Shown piece after piece: positions 2,455 through 20,000 of a stretch of 20,000 nucleotides of DNA; within the stretch, counting starts at the first letter, position 1; each line of letters opens with the position of its first letter. The stretch lies in the IMG/VR virus record IMGVR_UViG_3300032266_000637; one strand, written 5' to 3'. Under the pieces are notes generated by a model, which did not search any database, was not told where the DNA came from, and worked only from the letters and a program-made list of their open reading frames with translations. The translations under genes were made by a program, and so were the position numbers. The stretch is from an uncultured virus (IMG/VR IMGVR_UViG_3300032266_000637). Lineage: Duplodnaviria > Heunggongvirae > Uroviricota > Caudoviricetes.

Positions 2455-2694
2455 TTATGCTCCCTTTAATAAGTTTTTTAATTCTTGCTTTAATACTTTG
2501 GCATCGTTACCCCTAAAGGTTGATGCATTAGCTAAAAAATACATAATGACACTTCGAGCATCATCATAGATATATTTTGAATGAATGTTATCTAGATACT
2601 CCATTGCATCTAAATATGGTTTAGCTCCGAAATAGGGTTTTGCCCAAACCCGTTTTATATCTCTTGCAATACTACTGATTGATCTTTTTTCCAT
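2455..2694 (-). CDS. Conserved phage early protein (IARDIKRVW..PYFGAKPYLDAM...YFLANASTFRG), 79 aa
   Basis: ORF track; AAGGGAG RBS; motif recognisable from a widespread phage hypothetical family. Confidence 0.8.
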   Translation of the reverse strand: MEKRSISSIARDIKRVWAKPYFGAKPYLDAMEYLDNIHSKYIYDDARSVIMYFLANASTFRGNDAKVLKQELKNLLKGA

Positions 2695-2769
2695 TTGCTT
2701 ATGCTCCCTTGTTTACTGGTTAAAAAAGTGTTGCTATACATACATTTTAATAGTTTGCCTAGTATTTTG

Positions 2770-3017
2770 GTAAACTAAAAACCCTAATAGGGTTAACCCT
2801 GATAAATGGGGGGCAAAATGCCTGTTGAGAATGATTATCAATTAAGCATACCCCTAAAATCGATTTAAACGGGTTTTGGAGGGTTTTGATGGGTTTGCTC
2901 ATAAGTGCATTGGGAGGGTGTCGATCGTTTAACTGGGGACGATCTGATCGTTAGGGTTTACCCTTACCGGGATGTTGTTTTGCAGCAACACTTTGCTTGT
3001 CAATAGGTAAAAACCCT
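2770..3017. repeat. Copy A of a ~240-bp diverged direct repeat (regulatory cassette)
   Basis: Aligns with 3816-4050; shares GTAAACTAAAAACCCTAATAGGGT, a Fur box, an identical 25-mer ATTTAAACGGGTTTTGGAGGGTTTT, GATCGT-N10-ACGATC, TAGGGTTTACCCT and CTTGTCAATAGGT. Confidence 0.95.
2826..2840. promoter_or_regulatory. Fur box (7-1-7) TGAGAATGATTATCA
   Basis: One mismatch to the TGATAAT-N-ATTATCA Fur consensus. Confidence 0.75.
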
Positions 3018-3053
3018 GTGTGTTGTTTTCATACCACGGCCAGGTTTTTAGGT

Positions 3054-3080
3054 AAAAAAAAACCCTCCAATTGGAGGGTT
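3054..3080 (-). terminator. Intrinsic terminator of the gp88-like gene
   Basis: Perfect palindrome AACCCTCCAATTGGAGGGTT (3061-3080) followed on the minus strand by a T-run, 20 nt after the stop at 3101. Confidence 0.8.
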
Positions 3081-3100
3081 ATAGGGTTTTACCTAATTGC

Positions 3101-3739
3101 TTAGTGATATTTATAGGAAATATTAGGAATTGATTTATCCCAACAATTGCGACAATCTAAGCATTTTCCGCCTTGCTTATAACTAGGGCATTCTGTGCCA
3201 ATTGCACTATTAACTAAATGTACTGTGGATGTATTGGAAAATTTTGGAGGGTTACTATCCCTTTTTGTTGCAGATACTCTCACAATTAAATTAGTAGGAA
3301 AATCCCCAAAAGTATCTTGATATTGCTTTACTAAATTACTCTCTTTAGTGGGTATCCAAAATTTAGTATTAGGGCATTGCTCCGCAACACTCACAATATT
3401 AAGCAAGTGTTGGAATGATTGAATATCTCCGCTATCATGCCATCTAAAATATTGCATTTGTTGCTTATTGATAATAAATACCATAGCGTCAATCCATTGT
3501 GGATTTGTAAGGGTTTGATATCTCCGCTCATGAGCAATATCTATTGTTTTGGCATAGCGTACATAATTACCCTTAAGAGCGTAACAATTATGACAAACTG
3601 TACCCTCTATTTTTGCAAGCTTTGATCCAGTATTACAACGCTTTGCTGATATTGAATAGCTAGAACATGGCATTTTAGATGGAGCGGATAACCCCCCAAC
3701 AATTTCTAAAGCTTGTTTAATGGTTTTGATTTGTTGCAT
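3101..3739 (-). CDS. Gp88-like Cys-rich phage protein, 212 aa
   Basis: Motifs LSAPSKMP, CNTGSKL...VCHNCYALKG, FRWHDSGD and C-terminal CPS...CLDCRNCW match the mycobacteriophage Gp88-like family as I recall it; GGAGG RBS. Confidence 0.75.
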   Translation of the reverse strand: MQQIKTIKQALEIVGGLSAPSKMPCSSYSISAKRCNTGSKLAKIEGTVCHNCYALKGNYVRYAKTIDIAHERRYQTLTNPQWIDAMVFIINKQQMQYFRWHDSGDIQSFQHLLNIVSVAEQCPNTKFWIPTKESNLVKQYQDTFGDFPTNLIVRVSATKRDSNPPKFSNTSTVHLVNSAIGTECPSYKQGGKCLDCRNCWDKSIPNISYKYH

Positions 3740-3815
3740 ACATCCTCCAATTGTTTAGTTAATTAGGATATTGCTCACCTAATACTATAATTTTAAAGCT
3801 TTGTGCAATAAATTA

Positions 3816-4050
3816 GTAAACTAAAAACCCTAATAGGGTAAACCCTAGGTTTTGCCTGTTGATAATCATTCTCATTTGACTATGCCCCTAAAAACCATTT
3901 AAACGGGTTTTGGAGGGTTTTACTGGTTTTGCTTACAAGTGCATTAGAGGGTTAGTGATCGTTTAATATGGCACGATCTGAGACTTAGGGTTTACCCTAG
4001 GCCAGGTGTTGTGTGAATACAACAGTCACTTGTCAATAGGTGTTTACCCT
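3816..4050. repeat. Copy B of the ~240-bp direct repeat cassette
   Basis: See copy A at 2770-3017. Confidence 0.95.
3860..3874. promoter_or_regulatory. Fur box (7-1-7) TGATAATCATTCTCA
   Basis: One mismatch to consensus; exact reverse complement of the box in copy A. Confidence 0.75.
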
Positions 4051-4191
4051 AATTGCTGTTTAAGTGTCGTATATTTGCAACATGGTCGGTTTGCCTAAAT
4101 ATTAAGCAGATTAGCCCTATACCTCTCGCACCCGCATAAGTCAATAGGTACATTCCCTGATAGGGTAAACCCTGATTGGGCAATTTGCTTA

Positions 4192-4422
4192 TGCACCAAC
4201 TTGGTGCTGGTCCAATGCACCAGATTGGTGCGCCTGGTTAGTGAGTACTTACTAACTTGCCCCATTGTTAGCGTCCACTAACTTGCTGCATTGCACAACT
4301 TACCAATGCACCAGATTGGTGCTGGTCCAAAGTGAGTGAGTGCTTACTTACCAGGTGCACCAGATTGGTGCGCTTGGCAATGTGAGTAAGTGCTAACTTA
4401 CCTAATGCACCAAGTTGGTGCG
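4192..4422. promoter_or_regulatory. Five NtrC-consensus boxes TGCACCA-N3-TGGTGCK
   Basis: 4192-4208, 4216-4232, 4307-4323, 4356-4372, 4406-4422; each matches TGCACCAnnnTGGTGCA at all but the last base. Confidence 0.8.
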
Positions 4423-4475
4423 GCCGGTAAGTTAGTGAGTGCTTACTTCAATCAGGTGAGTGAGTACTTACTAAC
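4237..4475. repeat. Five copies of a 20-bp imperfect palindrome GTKAGTRAGTRCTWACTWAC, interleaved with the NtrC boxes
   Basis: 4237-4256, 4332-4351, 4382-4401, 4431-4450, 4456-4475. Confidence 0.9.
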
Positions 4476-4593
4476 TTGTCAGGTTAGAGCGTTGTTATTC
4501 TGCAACAAGGCAAAGGGGTGTTGTTTTTGCGCCACACCACCACTTTACGACTCCCTGAGTTTTGGGGCGGGGAGGCTCCAACCAAACCCAAGG

Positions 4594-4995
4594 TCTTGTC
4601 GATTTCCTATACATGTTTTTTGGATATGTATATTTTTTTTAATTTTTTATACATATTGACTGACTTGTATAGTAATAAGACAGGATACGATTTTTATATC
4701 GCGGCGCACCATTTTTGCTCTAAGTTTTTGTTTTATAAGGAAAAGTACTGACTTGTATAGTAATAAGGTGACAGGGTACAAAAACGCATCCTGTCTCCAA
4801 AACGCTTGTAAGTTATTGTTCTATAAGGGCTGTATAGTAATAAGACAGGGTATCCATAGTATTTCTTTATTTTTTATTTTTAATTTAAAAAAATAAAATA
4901 ACATATACAGCATAAACTTGGAATTACTGTGGATACTATGGATACCCTGCCTCCTTCTATACAAGTTTGTGGATTTAGGGCGCAACTTGTATAGA
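4594..4995. repeat. Iteron-like TGTATAG...ACAGGRTA repeats and inverted repeats around AT-rich cores (candidate origin or packaging site)
   Basis: Direct copies 4659-4688, 4747-4779, 4831-4855; perfect 17-bp inverted repeat 4846-4862 / 4933-4949. Confidence 0.8.
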
Positions 4996-5012
4996 ACTTG
5001 CATAAGTAGTTA
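4976..5012 (+). promoter_or_regulatory. Putative late promoter 1, TAGGGCG-N15-TTGCATAAGTAGT
   Basis: One of four copies with identical spacing; ATG at 5014. Confidence 0.8.
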
Positions 5013-5013
5013 C

Positions 5014-5274
5014 ATGAAGAGAATCAATCCAGATACCAACCAACCGTTCAAGTACGGCGACAAGCGCGCTGACGGAATGGTATTCTTTAACTACCGTAGC
5101 GATAAACTACTCACCGGGTTTCAAGGTGAGCGTTGGTTAACGCCAGCAAAGTTCTTATTGGCTGAAGCAAGGGATCGGTTCCTTAAGCATAAAAAACGAC
5201 GGCAAGATGGGAAACCCATAAGGATGACAAGAGGCAAGAATGAAAGATTGCGAGATAAAGAAGCCCATGTCTAA
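5014..5274 (+). CDS. Basic 86-aa protein (MKRINPDTNQPFKYGDKRADG...), possibly nucleic-acid binding
   Basis: Start revised from 4918 to the ATG directly after the late promoter; N-terminus resembles motifs seen in phage endonuclease-associated proteins (weak). Confidence 0.65.
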   Translation: MKRINPDTNQPFKYGDKRADGMVFFNYRSDKLLTGFQGERWLTPAKFLLAEARDRFLKHKKRRQDGKPIRMTRGKNERLRDKEAHV

Positions 5275-5545
5275 GAACTATGTTTACCAGATCAAGGGCA
5301 TTATGGAACTGCCCAACAAAGAAATCGGTGCGATCCGAGTTGCTATATGCTCAGTTGATATACTTGACTATGTGGATGTGCCAGCAGCCATATTTAACAA
5401 AGAGCTTCTTGCCTACCTCAAGTATCGATTGGCAGTAAACAACTATGTCGATGTGCGTAAGTTTCCAGACAAGATCACCAACCAGCTTAGAACCCCACTG
5501 AATACCTATCTGGATAACTGGGTGTTGTCTTCCTCCTTCAAGTAA
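5267..5545 (+). CDS. Hypothetical protein, 92 aa (MSKNYVYQIKG...)
   Basis: ORF track frame; 8-nt overlap with the upstream gene; TAATG coupling to the next gene. Confidence 0.7.
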   Translation: MSKNYVYQIKGIMELPNKEIGAIRVAICSVDILDYVDVPAAIFNKELLAYLKYRLAVNNYVDVRKFPDKITNQLRTPLNTYLDNWVLSSSFK

Positions 5546-6525
5546 TGGCGATTGCTGGAGATACCCCCGTGCCGGTTCCTAGCGGCTGGACGATTGCCTC
5601 CCAGCTAAAACCTGGTGACTATGTGTACGGCTCGGATGGACTGCCGCAGAAAGTCTACACTACCCACACCTACACCCCCGCCCAGATGTATTTGGTCACG
5701 ATGGGGGACGGTGTTGCCATTGAAACGGATCAGCATACCCTCCTGCCGATCAGCACCATCAACAACCGCATCGTAGAGAACAAGTACAAAGGTAAACGCA
5801 AGCGCAGAGCCGTCCAGAAGTTTGCCACACCGACCGAACTGCTCGAGCATGGGCTCAAAGGGACGAACAGGAACTGGCTGTTCTCGATCACTAACACAGC
5901 CCCAGTGCAGTTCCCTCATGAAGACCACCCTGTACCCCCGTTCATTGCGGGGATGTGGATGACAAGACGCAACCATCAGAGTCACTTCTGCTTAAGGGAA
6001 GAGGTTTTGGAGTATGCCCAGAAAGAAATCCGTTCTTGTGGCTGGGCGTTTGTGATGTTGCGTAAGAATTTACTAGAATTGCGCCCCAACATACGCAATT
6101 CGTTCTTAACTCGCTACCCTATCATCCCCACCACACTGCCAGTGGACTATTATTTCGGGTCAATTGAGCAACGGATTGACCTTTTGCGGGGATTATTGGT
6201 TACAAACCCTAGCGCTTACAACAAAAAGACTGAAGAATTTCTGATTCACAGCAGAGATTTGCGTCATTTGATTAAATTGCAAGGAATTTGTGAATCATTG
6301 GGCATGAAAACCCAAGTTTTTGAGAATAAAATCTCTTTCACGCATAGATTACGTTTTAAAACCAACATCGTTCTGCTTCCGTGGCAAAAAGTTGAACCCA
6401 ATTTGAAAAATGCGGGAAGAAGATCGATTACTGGTGTGGAGCCAATCCGTAGTTCGGCATCAATCCACATCACCACAGAAAAGCCCTTCGTAGTAGGGCA
6501 GGGATTTTTACCAATATGGCATTAA
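5545..6525 (+). CDS. Free-standing intein-derived protein (Hint-N + degenerate LAGLIDADG + Hint-C)
   Basis: N-term AIAGDTPVPVPSGWTIASQLKPGDYVYGSDG = intein block A; PPFIAGMWMTRR and SIEQRIDLLRGLLVTNP = degenerate LAGLIDADG helices; C-term SITGVEPI...PFVVGQGFLPIWH = blocks F/G. Confidence 0.85.
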   Translation: MAIAGDTPVPVPSGWTIASQLKPGDYVYGSDGLPQKVYTTHTYTPAQMYLVTMGDGVAIETDQHTLLPISTINNRIVENKYKGKRKRRAVQKFATPTELLEHGLKGTNRNWLFSITNTAPVQFPHEDHPVPPFIAGMWMTRRNHQSHFCLREEVLEYAQKEIRSCGWAFVMLRKNLLELRPNIRNSFLTRYPIIPTTLPVDYYFGSIEQRIDLLRGLLVTNPSAYNKKTEEFLIHSRDLRHLIKLQGICESLGMKTQVFENKISFTHRLRFKTNIVLLPWQKVEPNLKNAGRRSITGVEPIRSSASIHITTEKPFVVGQGFLPIWH

Positions 6526-7961
6526 CTAAACTTCAAGAAACGATTCTTGACAAATTTGCGCAAGCAAACAAGCATTGGCCAAAGGATCAGCTCGATCTAG
6601 CGTTATGGCGAGTGCGATGGGAGCTCATGGCACTAGATCATCAAAGGGAACCAGAAGATGGTGAGTACAACACGATGCTGATGCTCGCAGGTCGTGGTGC
6701 TGGTAAGACTTACACAGCGTCTAACTGGATTGGAATTCGAGCGTCTCTTTATAACGGCACTCGTTGGTTGGTAACAGCCCCCACTTCAAACGATATTAGA
6801 GCAACTTGCTTTGAGGGTGACTCGGGACTGATGAACATCATCCCTCATACGCTCATTGACACCTACAACAAATCGCTGTTTGAAATCCACCTAAAAAACG
6901 GCTCGATCATTCAAGGTATACCTGGTTCAGAACCAGAACGGTATCGTGGTAAACAGTTCCATGGTGCGTGGTTTGACGAGTTGGCGGCGTTTGACTACCT
7001 AGACGATGCATGGGATCAAGCGCAGTTCACTCTGCGTCTACGGGACAGCCGTATCAAGCGAGTCCAGCAGATTGTTACCACCACCCCCAAACCAAAAGAG
7101 CTCATCGTTGATCTGAACGAGGGTAAGGTAGGGGGTGATGTGTATGTGGTGAACGCCAGCTCGTACGACAACCGAGAGAATCTGTCTGAGTCGTTCTTCA
7201 ACGCACTAGAGACATACGAGGGCACCGACTTAGGTAAGCAAGAGATCTATGGTGCGATCCTTGACCCCGAGGATGCGGGTATTGTCAAGCGTAAGTGGTT
7301 GAAGATGTGGCCAGCCAAACAAGCCACGCCAATTCTTGAGTATGTGATTGCCAGCTACGACCCAGCAACCAGTGAGAAGACGACTAACGACCCGACTGCT
7401 TGCGAAGTGTTCGGTATCTTTGAGCACCCAGACAAAGGCACTTGTGTTATGTTACTGGACGCATGGGATACGCACATGTCTTACCCCGAGTTGCGTAAGA
7501 AAGTGATCAGCGATTTTAAAGAAGTGGTGTACGGATCAGACAACGACTTCGCTAAAGGGCGAAAGGCTGACCTCATACTGATGGAAGATAAGTCCGCTGG
7601 TATTTCACTGATCCAAGAGCTCCAAGGCTCGGGTGTACCAGTGCGAGGATACAACCCCGGCAAAGCGGATAAGGTGCAGCGATTGAACATTGTGGCACCG
7701 CTCATTGCTAAAGGGAAAATTTACATTCCAGAAGATCCAGACATCCCCGGCGAATTTGCACCATGGGCAAAACGACTCATTAGGCAAGTCTGCTCGTTCC
7801 CAGAGGCGGGTGGGCATGATGACTATGTGGATGCCCTATCACAAGCACTGAGGGTGCTCAGAGACTCTGGTTGGATCCAGCTTGACATTCTGCCAGCAAG
7901 AGACTATGGTTACTCAGATGATGAGAAAGCCAAGCAACGGTACAACCCCTATGCAGCATAG
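6516..7961 (+). CDS. terL: Terminase large subunit
   Basis: Walker A AGRGAGKT, Walker B AWFDE, coupling motif VTTTP, RNase H-like nuclease SYDPA...HDDYVDALSQAL. Confidence 0.97.
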   Translation: MALTKLQETILDKFAQANKHWPKDQLDLALWRVRWELMALDHQREPEDGEYNTMLMLAGRGAGKTYTASNWIGIRASLYNGTRWLVTAPTSNDIRATCFEGDSGLMNIIPHTLIDTYNKSLFEIHLKNGSIIQGIPGSEPERYRGKQFHGAWFDELAAFDYLDDAWDQAQFTLRLRDSRIKRVQQIVTTTPKPKELIVDLNEGKVGGDVYVVNASSYDNRENLSESFFNALETYEGTDLGKQEIYGAILDPEDAGIVKRKWLKMWPAKQATPILEYVIASYDPATSEKTTNDPTACEVFGIFEHPDKGTCVMLLDAWDTHMSYPELRKKVISDFKEVVYGSDNDFAKGRKADLILMEDKSAGISLIQELQGSGVPVRGYNPGKADKVQRLNIVAPLIAKGKIYIPEDPDIPGEFAPWAKRLIRQVCSFPEAGGHDDYVDALSQALRVLRDSGWIQLDILPARDYGYSDDEKAKQRYNPYAA

Positions 7962-17344: not shown

Positions 17345-20000
17345 ATGGCCGATCAAAGTATATCGCAACTACCAGTAGCAGCCACCATCACAGGTAATGA
17401 GCTTGCTGTTGTTGTGCAAAACGGTATTACAAAACAAGCACAAGTATCTCAGCTTGCCAATGCCATATCGCCTGGTAAGTTAATTAATTACTTGTACTTT
17501 GACGGCGCAAGCAATTTAATTGTTGTCTACACAGATTCAACAACACAAAACTTAGGCCCAATACCAGGCTACATTGCAGCAAGTATTAACAGCGTTGGTC
17601 ATTTAATTTTAACTAACTCCACTGGTGGTACAACTGATGCGGGTTCTGTATTTGCCTCGTTAACTCAGACATTTACTACTGTAAACAACGAGACAGCAAC
17701 ATTACCAAATAGCCAGCGTTTAATTGCTGGTGCAAACATTTCGTTAACCAGCGGCACAAACACGCTGACTATTGCGGCATCTGGTTCGGCTGGTAGTTTA
17801 AATTCAGCTGGTCTAGGTTTTATTGTAAAAGATACTAGCAACACGGTTGTTGCCCGTACACTTACTAGCACAGCGGGTATTAGCATTACTAACCCTACAG
17901 GCGGTGCAGGCAATCCAGTTATCAGCCCGTCTTTAAAATTAGCTGACATTCAGAATTTAGCAACAACAGGTATTTTAGCGGTTGTTGGTGGTACTACTGT
18001 AATTGATCGTAACATTGTTGGTACAGCATCACAAATTACCGTAACTGGTGGTGACGGATCTGCTAACCCAACAATTAGTATTGCACCAAGCCCGGTACTT
18101 CCAGGTACAGGCTCGGTAACATTACCAACGGGTACTACAGCACAACGCCCTGGTGCACTGGCTGGTCAGTTACGTTTTAATACATCATTGAATGTATTTG
18201 AAGGACAAAATAACAGCGGTGTTTGGCAGACATTGGCCCTTGGTGGCGGTGTAACATCTGTTGGAAGTGGCACAGGCTTAACAGGCGGCCCAATTACATC
18301 TACAGGCACTATCAGTATTGCTAACACAGGCGTAACAGCAGGTAGTTATACAAATGCTAACATTACAGTTAATGCGCAAGGTCAGATTACTGTTGCATCA
18401 AGTGGCTCAGCTGGAGGTGTTACAACATTTAGTGCAGGCACAACAGGTTTTACGCCTAGTGCAGCATCAACAGGTGCTATTACTCTAGCTGGCACATTAA
18501 ATGTTGCAAATGGTGGAACTGGTGCAACCACATTAACAGGCTATCTAGTCGGTAACGGTACAAGTGCAGTAACTGCAGTAGCTACTATACCAAATGCAGG
18601 CTTAACAAATAGCTCTGTTACTTATAATGGCACAACAGTTGCATTAGGCGCAAGCGGTACAATTACTGCTGTTAACCCAAACGCATTAACTATTGGTACT
18701 GGTCTAACAGGCACATCTTATACGGGTGCGGCTGCAGTGACTATTGCAATTGACAGCACAGTAGCAACATTAACTGGAACACAGACGCTTACTAATAAAA
18801 CAATTAGTGGCGCAAGCAACACATTAACAAATATTGCCAATGCAAGTTTAACAAATAGCTCAATTACATTAGGCACAAGTGCTGTATCATTAGGTGGTAC
18901 GTTACTTGCACCAGCCGGACTAACAAGTGTTACTGTAACAGCAGACCCAACATTGGCCTTGCAGTTAGCAACAAAACAATATGTTGATGGATTGGTGTCT
19001 ACCGGATTGGCATACCACCAGCCAGTACAAGCTGCAACAACAGCAGCATTAACTGGCGTTGTCGTTTACAATAACGGCGCAGCGGGAGTCGGGGCTACAC
19101 TTACGCTTACCACGCCATTAACTGTTTTAGATGGGTATACACTACTTAACACTAACCGCATACTGATTAAAAATCAAGTTGATCAGGCTCAAAATGGTAT
19201 TTATACTTGGGCAACAGGCGGCACAGTACTAACTCGTGCAACGGATGCTGATACATATGGGCCAGGCACTAGTCAGCTTAGCCAAAACGATTACTTCTTT
19301 ACTCAAAACGGAACTGTTAACAAAGGCACTTCTTTTGTAGTTACAACAGTTGGAACCATTACTTTTGGCACAACTGCAATTACGTTTGCTGAGTTTAGTA
19401 GCTCATTGGTATATACTGGCGGTACAGGCATCACGGTAGCAGGAACAGTAATTAGTTTATCCGACACAGCAGTTACCACAGGAACTTATGGTAACGCAGC
19501 AAGAACAACTACACAGACTGTAAACCAGCAAGGTCAGATTACTAATATATTTGACCAGCTAATTGCGATTGCTGGCTCACAAATTACTTCTGGAACCGTT
19601 GCAATTGCTAATGGTGGTACAGGTCAGACTACCGCATCAGCAGCCTTTAATGCTTTATCACCCATTACTACGACAGGTGATGTAATTATTGGCAATGGAA
19701 CAAATAGTGCTACTAGACTAGGAATCGGTTCAAACGGTCAAGTTTTAACCAGTAACGGAACTACTGCTACTTGGACAACCCCAGCTTCAGGTGGCGTAAC
19801 TACAATTTCTTTTGGTTCTACAGGGTTAACACCTGCAACAGCCACATCAGGTGCTGTAACTGTTGCAGGTACATTAGCCGTAGCCAATGGCGGTACAGGA
19901 AGAACTGTTGGTAACTACTCCATCTACGCAAATGAGATTCATGTTGGTAAAGACGGAAACGACACAACAGGTGACGGAACTTTAATCAATCCAGTATTAA
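17345..20000 (+). CDS. Tail fibre / long virion adhesin (3' truncated, at least 885 aa)
   Basis: Absent from the ORF track, presumably because it has no stop in the window. Begins MADQSISQLPVAATITGNE; contains PTGTTAQRP..GQLRFNT, GVTAGSYTNANITVNAQGQIT, ATKQYVD, repeated VANGGTG; ends in frame with GNDTTGDGTLINPV. Confidence 0.9.
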   Translation, partial: MADQSISQLPVAATITGNELAVVVQNGITKQAQVSQLANAISPGKLINYLYFDGASNLIVVYTDSTTQNLGPIPGYIAASINSVGHLILTNSTGGTTDAGSVFASLTQTFTTVNNETATLPNSQRLIAGANISLTSGTNTLTIAASGSAGSLNSAGLGFIVKDTSNTVVARTLTSTAGISITNPTGGAGNPVISPSLKLADIQNLATTGILAVVGGTTVIDRNIVGTASQITVTGGDGSANPTISIAPSPVLPGTGSVTLPTGTTAQRPGALAGQLRFNTSLNVFEGQNNSGVWQTLALGGGVTSVGSGTGLTGGPITSTGTISIANTGVTAGSYTNANITVNAQGQITVASSGSAGGVTTFSAGTTGFTPSAASTGAITLAGTLNVANGGTGATTLTGYLVGNGTSAVTAVATIPNAGLTNSSVTYNGTTVALGASGTITAVNPNALTIGTGLTGTSYTGAAAVTIAIDSTVATLTGTQTLTNKTISGASNTLTNIANASLTNSSITLGTSAVSLGGTLLAPAGLTSVTVTADPTLALQLATKQYVDGLVSTGLAYHQPVQAATTAALTGVVVYNNGAAGVGATLTLTTPLTVLDGYTLLNTNRILIKNQVDQAQNGIYTWATGGTVLTRATDADTYGPGTSQLSQNDYFFTQNGTVNKGTSFVVTTVGTITFGTTAITFAEFSSSLVYTGGTGITVAGTVISLSDTAVTTGTYGNAARTTTQTVNQQGQITNIFDQLIAIAGSQITSGTVAIANGGTGQTTASAAFNALSPITTTGDVIIGNGTNSATRLGIGSNGQVLTSNGTTATWTTPASGGVTTISFGSTGLTPATATSGAVTVAGTLAVANGGTGRTVGNYSIYANEIHVGKDGNDTTGDGTLINPVL

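Follow-up and report, generated by a model that had tools for sequence, protein, structure and literature searches.

The central control region of an uncultured freshwater tailed virus (IMG/VR record IMGVR_UViG_3300032266_000637; Duplodnaviria; Heunggongvirae; Uroviricota; Caudoviricetes) is dense in palindromes, and most of the conserved ones appear to be sites for host proteins and not for phage proteins. We analysed a 20,000-nucleotide stretch of this genome, referred to here as the window; its central control region, segment 2770-4536, has leftward early-type genes on one side and, on the other, packaging and structural genes that run rightward. At its heart is a tiled array, in which a 20-bp palindrome that was not identified in the initial annotation of this DNA is interleaved with boxes for NtrC. 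The 20-bp palindrome is a predicted binding site for SlmA, the nucleoid-occlusion protein that antagonises FtsZ, and putative Fur boxes lie in two promoter modules to the left of the array. Host orthologues of SlmA, NtrC and Fur probably bind these sites. As to the whole reading, that the region would be a landing pad for host proteins within the phage control region, we judge the chances to be about even.

According to published work, SlmA binds the 12-bp palindrome GTGAGTACTCAC (PMC3020112; PMC3116907), in which positions 1, 2, 4 and 5 must be G, T, A and G, position 3 may be either purine and position 6 either pyrimidine (PMC3020112), and a 20-bp SlmA oligonucleotide has GTAA...TTAC flanks (10.1101/264192). 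Motif enrichment in the window was tested against 200 shuffles. The pattern GTRAGYRCTYAC occurred four times exactly and once with one mismatch, all within 4241-4471, compared with 0.54 expected (0/200 shuffles). Site 4332-4351 agreed with the published SlmA 20-mer at 17 of 20 positions (our own count). Strict SlmA sites are rare even in E. coli K-12, where we found only five in 4.64 Mb, against two for a control pattern; the phage has four in 230 bp.

The sites were not peculiar to this genome. From IMG/VR we kept 80 related loci with a large terminase (TerL) identity of 78-100%, of which the 45 with at least 2600 nt upstream of TerL formed 31 sequence clusters. Every 12-mer within two mismatches of the SlmA consensus was taken from the 31 cluster representatives, with flanks unconstrained, which gave 74 SlmA-type sites; all but one of the clusters (30 of 31) had them, and the 31 coding controls, each of 3.6 kb, had none. 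Departures from the consensus fell almost exclusively at positions 3, 6, 7 and 10, and positions 1, 2, 4 and 5 and their mirrors were invariant. Although free to vary in the search, the flanks read G-T-n-A before the core and T-n-A-C after it, fitting the 20-bp SlmA oligonucleotide, and the same flanks recurred at 123 sites from 47 loci without homology to the window, again with a pattern that left the flanks free. NtrC boxes with up to two mismatches numbered 69, in 20 of the 31 clusters, again with none in the coding controls; the conservation of motifs in related phages on which the initial annotation depended was therefore found for both families.

The position and the sequence of these elements were both stable. 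The array lay 1.7-2.3 kb upstream of TerL in the relatives, and between -2600 and -1400 from TerL the core of the 20-mer was present in 29 of the 31 clusters, the core of a TGC-rich palindrome in 24, AGGGTWWACCCT in 18, the 17-mer NtrC box in 16 and a sigma-54 promoter in seven. The motif sequences stayed constant in relatives of 38-53% GC, while neighbouring small genes dropped to 30-60% identity. In two complete genomes all motif families mapped to this region only, apart from three stray hits to short or loose patterns.

A 17-bp palindrome, TGCACCAnnnTGGTGCA, has been proposed as the NtrC consensus (PMC8743547). The initial annotation had recognised NtrC sites here, and rightly so: the array holds five exact boxes, which fit TGCACCAnnnTGGTGC and match every position of TGCACCAnnnTGGTGCA except the last base (G or T). 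The pattern TGCACCA-N2-TTGGTGC gave 10 strand hits in the window, that is five sites, against 0.23 expected, and none of the 200 shuffles reached 10. Among the phages the 17-mer took the form TGCACCA-N3-TGGTGC followed by G, T or A; across relatives its specified positions were nearly invariant save the last, and the central three bases varied.

In relatives the boxes are accompanied by sigma-54 promoters. Exact TGGCAC-N5-TTGCW promoters stood within the array or at its left edge, on the rightward strand, in seven of 31 relative clusters, with up to four per locus; many of the relatives' sigma-54 promoters read TGGCACGATTCTTGC, and the published RpoN motif TGGCACnnTTnTTGC fits these elements (PMC8743547). 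In another scan, tandem NtrC boxes turned up in 115 viral contigs. Among the 80 of these that were fetched, 13 had exact sigma-54 promoters (23 hits compared with approximately 0.1 expected by our own calculation), 45 had strict SlmA sites, 16 had Fur-type boxes and 66 had protein homology with the window. The Sigma54_activat, TetR_N and HTH_8 profiles each gave no match in the records of five relatives (four of them complete), with all controls positive; the phage may encode a binder of an unrecognised kind, because most small phage open reading frames (ORFs) have no family. The arrangement resembles a glnAp2-type NtrC enhancer in having the same 17-bp box in multiple copies and, in relatives, exact -24/-12 promoters with no phage activator found. 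It differs in that this phage has no nearby sigma-54 promoter and five boxes in place of two, and in that the boxes of relatives are often too close to the promoter, or downstream of it. Window-wide, sigma-54 matches with up to two mismatches numbered 26 (14.2 expected; 0/200 shuffles reached 26), and a perfect -24/-12 consensus occurs at 18628-18643 (+) inside an 885-aa head-decoration-like ORF; this site had no exact copy in G004, the closest complete relative.

The Fur sites claimed in the initial annotation also held up at the level of sequence. Two 15-mers differed by one mismatch from the Fur box, which we take to be the 7-1-7 inverted repeat TGATAATnATTATCA. With up to two mismatches allowed there were three hits, more than in any of the 200 shuffles and against 0.12 expected, the third (two mismatches) being at 3469, inside the gene of a GP88-family protein. 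A degenerate form of the 15-mer was found at 23 sites in 12 of 13 genomes of the candidate host genus (introduced below), with none for the reversed control, and in four of seven annotated loci there it adjoined HutX-like (twice), TonB or SfuA-like genes. Given iron- or heme-gene neighbours at four of seven loci, the 15-mer is probably the native iron box of that genus. The likeness to known Fur boxes thus covers both the inverted repeat, one mismatch away, and the company of heme, TonB and iron-transport genes in the candidate host genus; the difference is that the phage has two such putative sites per genome, upstream of predicted core promoters. Each Fur box combines one GAGAAT-type with one GATAAT-type half, and the G form is the commoner one in relatives and in the candidate host genus. 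The Fur boxes of the two modules (2826-2841 and 3859-3874, repeat I11) are exact reverse complements of each other, although their flanks are direct repeats.

We measured palindrome density as coverage by perfect inverted repeats with arms of at least 6 and loops of at most 4, against 100 dinucleotide shuffles. Coverage reached 31.3% at 4190-4480, compared with 2.7% in shuffles (maximum 12%), 16.7% compared with 2.4% at 2695-3100, and 14.6% compared with 1.9% at 3740-4600; in the GP88 coding sequence, TerL and the portal gene it was at shuffle level. The array runs NtrC, NtrC, SlmA, degenerate SlmA-like, TGC-palindrome, NtrC, SlmA, NtrC, SlmA (1 mismatch), NtrC, SlmA, SlmA, in tandem units of 49-50 bp (repeats D2-D4). 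Further families are AGGGTWWACCCT (five sites), CCCTRATAGGG (three), TGYTGCA-N-TGCARCA (one), GTCAATAGGT (three), hairpin-type TGTTG...CAACA repeats and GATC clusters. The dense palindromes of at least six families described in the initial annotation are therefore real and far above the shuffled level. Its picture of more than 1 kb of non-coding DNA made almost wholly of end-to-end palindromes needs trimming: the non-coding parts are indeed palindrome-rich, but 3101-3739 encodes the GP88-family protein and strict end-to-end tiling is limited to 4192-4475. The diversity of families stands at six or more, but two copies of one promoter module (2744-3030 and 3790-4061, 78-81% identical) mean that much of the apparent palindrome diversity of the span is duplication.

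Fis-like sites, also proposed for the region, did not survive: the Fis pattern GNNYANNNNNTRNNC gave 23 hits against 19.1 expected (42/200 shuffles reached 23), with only two in the span. Nor were DnaA boxes, whose consensus we take to be TTATCCACA, enriched in the window (10 against 5.8 expected; 12/200 shuffles reached 10), where there was one 8-of-9 match, at 4928. The TGC-rich palindrome, called PhaR-like in the initial annotation, stands here as a conserved family without an assigned protein. Its abundance and that of the NtrC boxes were roughly reciprocal between lineages, some having, for example, five or six NtrC boxes with none or one TGC-palindrome, and others no NtrC box with four to six. 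A literature search on the unassigned palindrome strings, including AGGGTWWACCCT and the TGC-rich palindrome, found no transcription-factor paper. The broader claim that sites for many unrelated host proteins are collected on one segment is nevertheless supported at the level of sequence by SlmA, NtrC and Fur and by the relatives' sigma-54 promoters.

Another possible role for the palindromes is as hairpins, either in RNA or in a single strand, for instance within a structured leader, an attenuator or a non-coding RNA. Sigma-54 promoters upstream of the array in some relatives mean that the array would be transcribed there, and triple half-sites beside a -35 element could form alternative hairpins, one of which was flagged as terminator-like. 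However, the halves of the SlmA sites vary independently, often breaking pairing with no compensatory change, and the NtrC boxes are invariant and do not covary. The alignment fold of a conserved boundary element at the right end of the span (Table 1) had 0/6 compensatory pairs at -3.46 kcal/mol, so no RNA covariation was found in it, and an Rfam search of the window at E <= 1 gave only two microRNA models, far under thresholds and elsewhere in the window, neither of them relevant. A tRNA search of the window gave nothing relevant. We consider a hairpin role to be barely credible.

SlmA is found in gamma- and betaproteobacteria. A contig with 79% TerL identity (C85, locus L091) sits in a betaproteobacterial metagenome-assembled genome, G007, our candidate host. 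G007 encodes a SlmA scoring 277 bits (equivalog cut-off 120), a cut-off which among 14 control genomes was passed only by E. coli and not by Caulobacter. It also encodes NtrB, NtrC and RpoN, with an NtrC box (1 mismatch) upstream of glnA-ntrBC. Two other contigs of G007, C27 (L096) and C42 (L098), have paired NtrC boxes 90 and 110 bp apart, and C27 has a phage-type control region with paired NtrC boxes, TGC-palindromes, AGGGTAAACCCT repeats, a Fur-like box and a poly-A tract. As the bin holds three phage-type control regions (C27, C42 and C85), binning may have been by co-occurrence. The element GATCAnnTGATC, which is paired with NtrC boxes in L091, occurred 12 times in G007 outside phage contig C85 and 16 times including it; the counts in 12 further genomes of the genus ranged from 1 to 12 each, and approximately 2-3 would be expected. 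These counts were not taken as evidence, the control pattern holding the rare CTAG.

How might a phage profit from such sites? It has been reported that a cell holds about 500 SlmA dimers for 24-52 chromosomal sites, that SlmA antagonises FtsZ only while it is site-bound, and that a multicopy plasmid with tandem SlmA sites, together with mild SlmA overproduction, causes a lethal cell-wide Z-ring block (PMC3573117, PMC4117426). On the mechanism that we propose, each replicated phage genome would add about five top-grade SlmA sites, equal to the strict-site total of the E. coli K-12 chromosome. Host SlmA would shift onto phage DNA spread through the cytoplasm, where the site-bound protein would be an active FtsZ antagonist, and Z-ring assembly and division would halt, as with tandem-SlmA-site multicopy plasmids in E. 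coli. The NtrC boxes would be an enhancer for sigma-54 promoters where these are present, and in this phage an NtrC-dependent brake or sink; the Fur boxes would couple early promoters to iron status, or titrate Fur. Multicopy Fur boxes are known to titrate Fur, the basis of the Fur titration assay.

The comparison with E. coli SlmA sites and plasmids of the pUC-2xSBS type is close in that the 12-bp palindrome, its tolerated positions and the 20-bp flanks are the same, and tandem sites on a multicopy replicon are the very setting of the cell-wide SlmA block to the Z-ring. The predicted phage sites differ in being natural, at least five per copy and interleaved with NtrC boxes, whereas the chromosomal sites of E. 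coli are single, dispersed and mostly off the strict consensus (only five strict in K-12). That a SlmA-mediated block to division is the function under selection is a tentative suggestion, which we hold at well under even confidence. Equally tentative is its general form, in which the arrays would be DNA-encoded division inhibitors of a widespread kind, the amplified genome pulling SlmA to phage DNA so that Z-ring assembly stops without any phage protein, and the NtrC and Fur boxes adding a multi-protein sink and sensor.

Several observations weigh against host binding, or against the division block. L091, the only relative tied to a host genome, is without SlmA sites: at about -1830 to -1640 from TerL it has four NtrC boxes paired with GATCAnnTGATC instead. 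Strict SlmA sites were not enriched in G007 (two, with one for the control), and 61 genomes of its order held 65 against 99 for the control (our own sums); this genome-enrichment test has little power, because E. coli itself gives only five against two. We found no sigma-54 promoter with up to two mismatches at 2600-5400 of the window, where the best candidate has three mismatches and lies inside the GP88 gene, so that an enhancer role of the kind read from relatives is not open to this array. Among the relatives themselves, the centre of an NtrC box is often 18 nt upstream of the -24 element, or downstream of it, and not at the classical position of about -110. The Fur boxes are approximately 50-70 nt upstream of the predicted -35 and not over the predicted core promoter, which is not the usual arrangement for Fur repression. 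The unassigned families (AGGGTWWACCCT, the TGC-palindrome, TGTTG...CAACA and the boundary element) may bind phage proteins. Two palindromes alternating at a regular interval of about 25 bp could mark a single composite nucleoprotein complex. Finally, for the pure SlmA arrays of other lineages, which lie beside exact DnaA boxes and a poly-T tract, an origin would be no worse an explanation than a sink.

One rival explanation, an option raised in the initial annotation, keeps the host proteins and dispenses with titration. The region would be purely a multi-input transcription switch, in which NtrC, Fur and SlmA report nitrogen, iron and cell-cycle state. Both early-promoter modules have Fur boxes and relatives combine sigma-54 promoters with NtrC boxes; Vibrio cholerae SlmA is capable of direct transcription activation (PMC5519180), and Pseudomonas phage YuA, a tailed phage, is reported to use sigma-54-type promoters, although the available text describes no NtrC-box or SlmA-site array in it (PMC10914365). 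Five NtrC plus five SlmA sites are, however, far beyond what a switch needs, the array in the window has no sigma-54 promoter nearby, and arrays of four to six SlmA sites with no NtrC box speak of capacity rather than logic. We regard a switch of this sort as distinctly improbable.

Those pure arrays came from a wider survey. Tandem SlmA-type sites were found in at least 120 viral contigs, where by a rough estimate fewer than one would be expected by chance, and of 80 such contigs fetched, 33 had protein homology to the window within 1.5 kb and 47 had none. Exact DnaA boxes numbered 17 in the fetched contigs, against about 1.7 expected, and in 13 of the 80 loci such a box was no more than 400 nt from a site. 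Five IMG/VR loci (L127, L149, L158, L164 and L178) have pure SlmA-type arrays of four to six 20-mers, 22-46 bp apart, with no NtrC box, and in all of these except L127 the array has an exact DnaA box on one side and, on the other, a G-rich element with a poly-T tract. The pure array of L164 had no match to cultured-phage DNA. Among 185,579 species genomes of bacteria and archaea, none held the composite of an NtrC box followed by a SlmA site. The array therefore did not come intact from a host locus, nor is it seen in prophages there. None of the motif families was found in Caulobacter phage RW (11 kb examined) or in a relative with 52% TerL identity (16 kb).

The DnaA boxes bear on a second rival, that the array is a replication origin, packaging or partition site, with iterons for a conserved phage protein, candidates being the D5-type primase-helicase, a small terminase-like protein and an initiator of unrecognised type; its likeness to host sites would then be coincidence, or mimicry without host binding. 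An origin would suit the tandem 49-50-bp units, the single array per genome, the adjoining AT-rich tract with inverted repeats and a location a short way ahead of the terminase genes. One relative has a replication module of its own, and the AT-rich repeats differ by lineage and track the fast-evolving genes at 4918-5545. Against this, the two palindromes match the consensus sites of two unrelated host proteins, down to the flanks and the positions that SlmA tolerates; as so deep a match occurs twice, chance identity is very unlikely. The sites also hold constant where the identity of adjacent phage genes is down to 30-60%. In relatives they are interspersed with sigma-54 promoters, a type read by host RNA polymerase only, and in the early region of one relative 59 ORFs gave no Pfam match to a ParB, initiator or helix-turn-helix family. 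Iteron or centromere arrays of plasmids and phages, such as sopC of plasmid F, offer a ready comparison. Like iterons and centromeres, the phage array has tandem units of about 50 bp with short palindromes, in a single array per replicon; unlike them, it alternates two palindromes that both match host-protein consensus sites, and the Pfam scan of the relative's early region gave no cognate ParB or initiator. We think the origin, packaging or partition reading unlikely, although an origin and host binding are compatible, since host SlmA or DnaA could act at a phage origin.

A third rival, a protein-coated leading end as likewise suggested in the initial annotation, supposes that this is the first DNA to enter the cell and that host proteins on it serve as a nuclease shield or a transfer pause. 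Phage T5, with its repeat-rich injection-stop region, is the natural comparison. The region borders early-type genes, and the deposited genomes of cultured Caulobacter relatives end about 3.8 kb upstream of TerL. However, the contig ends of the 80 relatives did not cluster at the array, and three complete relatives are classed as having terminal repeats in arbitrary permutation. We therefore think a leading end very improbable. The G-rich boundary element was likewise dropped as a candidate cohesive-end site, contig starts of the 80 relatives being clustered neither there nor at the array.

The remainder of the span is built around the GP88 gene (Table 1), whose homologues, at 28-45% identity, come from Pelagibacter, Roseobacter, Caulobacter and Acinetobacter phages. 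A module of about 280 bp is duplicated around it, each copy upstream of a leftward gene, and two or three copies are retained in relatives. Its elements follow in the order AACCCTA/TAGGGTT/AACCCT triple, Fur-type 15-mer, GATC cluster, AGGGTTTACCCT, TGTTG...CAACA inverted repeat and GTCAATAGGT. Copy A has a sigma-70-like site at its left edge (TTACCA, 18 nt, TAAAAT; 2773 down to 2744, minus strand), and equivalent hexamers were read by eye in copy B. The boundary element, at 4515-4595 GGTGTTGTTT...CCACACC with a G-rich stretch ending GGAGGCTCC, was conserved in 17 of 31 cluster representatives (regular expression). The AT-rich region beyond it holds three TGTATAGTAATAAG repeats (4666, 4754 and 4831), a 20-nt inverted repeat (4843-4862 and 4933-4952) around an A/T tract, and sigma-70-like sites at 4646-4673 and 4732-4761; its repeats are lineage-specific.

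Table 1. Coordinates of the control region elements and of neighbouring genes in the window.
Feature	Position	Strand	Remarks
79-aa protein gene, first of the leftward early-type small-gene operon	2455-2694	-	phrog_13953, E 6e-25; kept in relatives
Promoter module, copy A	2744-3030		Direct repeats D1, D6, D11; upstream of leftward operon
Three alternating half-sites AACCCTA / TAGGGTT / AACCCT, copy A	2780-2800		Family AGGGTWWACCCT
Fur-box-like 15-mer, copy A	2826-2840		1 mismatch to 7-1-7 consensus
GATC cluster (3 sites), then palindrome AGGGTTTACCCT	2923-2964		Element also in relatives
Inverted repeat TGTTG...CAACA, then GTCAATAGGT, copy A	2973-3008		Repeat scan
Intrinsic terminator of GP88 gene	3051-3080 (stem 3061-3080)	-	8-pair stem, then T-run
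GP88-family protein gene, 212 aa	3101-3739	-	PF17338, E 2.4e-24; phrog_1392
Promoter module, copy B	3790-4061		Upstream of GP88 gene
Half-site palindromes, copy B	3826-3846		
Fur-box-like 15-mer, copy B	3860-3874		1 mismatch to 7-1-7 consensus
GATC sites, copy B	3957, 3975		
Palindrome, copy B	3987-3998		
Inverted repeat, copy B	4007-4024		
GTCAATAGGT, copy B	4032-4041		
Third, partial copy of module end: GTCAATAGGT + CCCTGATAGGGTAAACCCT	4140-4176		Repeats D7, D10
Tiled array (about 290 bp)	4192-4475		12 sites, centres about 20-29 bp apart
Five NtrC boxes	4192-4208, 4216-4232, 4307-4323, 4356-4372, 4406-4422		Exact TGCACCA-N3-TGGTGC
Five SlmA-site-type 20-mers	4237-4256, 4332-4351, 4382-4401, 4431-4450, 4456-4475		1 core mismatch in 4382-4401
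Degenerate SlmA-like 20-mer copy	4267-4284		
TGC-rich palindrome TGYTGCA-N-TGCARCA, single copy	4284-4298		Core in 24/31 clusters
Boundary element: GTTGTT...AACAAC inverted repeat, then GGTGTTGTTT...CCACACC, then G-rich stretch	4489-4595		
AT-rich region (about 30% GC)	4600-5013		Leads to packaging genes; adjoins the span, outside it
Large terminase TerL	6516-7961	rightward	Terminase_6N + 6C

In the ORF list, leftward small genes occupy 1-2694 of the window, and the packaging and structural side runs rightward from about 4918 with two small genes, a 326-aa protein, TerL, portal, a GroES-like gene and head genes. The 79-aa protein that opens the leftward operon was modelled as a confident four-helix fold (pLDDT 93). 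It was dropped as a candidate DNA binder, since the model was confident but had no match in the PDB at E <= 0.001, and nothing in a four-helix fold without a PDB match marks DNA binding; in the Atlas the protein matched only unnamed viral clusters. Pfam at E <= 10 did not find a DNA-binding family among 14 small ORFs near the region.

Ranked by TerL identity, an uncultured virus (52%) and the Caulobacter Riverwalk phages (40.6%) come closest among named relatives, and segment 2700-5000 had no similarity match to cultured-phage DNA. Riverwalkvirus (Caulobacter phages RW, RLK, KcrB and GB2A), which comprises the nearest cultured relatives, is similar in its packaging and head gene order, including the GroES-like gene, but differs in having no motif family in the 11 kb of RW, and the accessible text of PMC11053796 mentions no such array. 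A Pfam scan of 59 ORFs of the complete relative G004 (67.8 kb) identified a sigma-70-family factor, C5 methylase, D5-type primase-helicase, SNF2 helicase, DUF2800 nuclease, Enc34-type single-strand-binding protein and DNA polymerase A. No integrase, ParB, repressor, initiator/Rep or helix-turn-helix family was detected by Pfam among these 59 ORFs, most of which had no family at all. With no integrase, ParB or repressor in that scan, the phage reads as a probable virulent type.

Some of the genes to the right of the region showed features of their own. The 326-aa ORF before TerL (5545-6525, +) resembles a Hint/intein domain in opening with MAIAGDT and closing with IWH; it has a start of its own, overlaps both neighbouring genes and has partial terminase PHROG matches only (phrog_15, E 7e-13). 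It is fast-evolving, with 27-58% identity where the TerL of relatives is 78-89% identical. A small protein gene at 5014-5274 (+), upstream of the packaging genes, probably starts at MKRINP, and its product has an N-terminal domain in common with 163-173-aa paralogues of relatives, which have an HNH-type motif at the end (L020:15461-15982, L046:14630-15121 and L072:6534-7025). This protein may be the DNA-recognition partner of the lineage-specific repeats at 4600-5000. The sigma-70-family factor of G004 (L084:3879-4484, +) has regions 1.2, 2 and 3, with region 4 not detected, and the TG-TATAGT-type repeats at 4666, 4754 and 4831 of the window could be promoters of a phage factor of this family.

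Small proteins through which phages arrest host division are known, Kil of lambda being one. Among the papers listed by our literature searches, none dealt with SlmA sites in a phage genome or with phage NtrC-box arrays. If the arrays do act on SlmA, a stop to division by way of non-coding DNA, exploiting the site-dependent activation of SlmA, would be a new mode of host takeover. The array would then also be a signature for host prediction, since only hosts with SlmA, NtrC and sigma-54 would fit, and uncultured freshwater phages would couple infection to nitrogen and iron status. If the array is instead an origin, host nucleoid proteins would be recruited to a viral origin. On either reading, the array is a compact natural set of consensus-grade sites.

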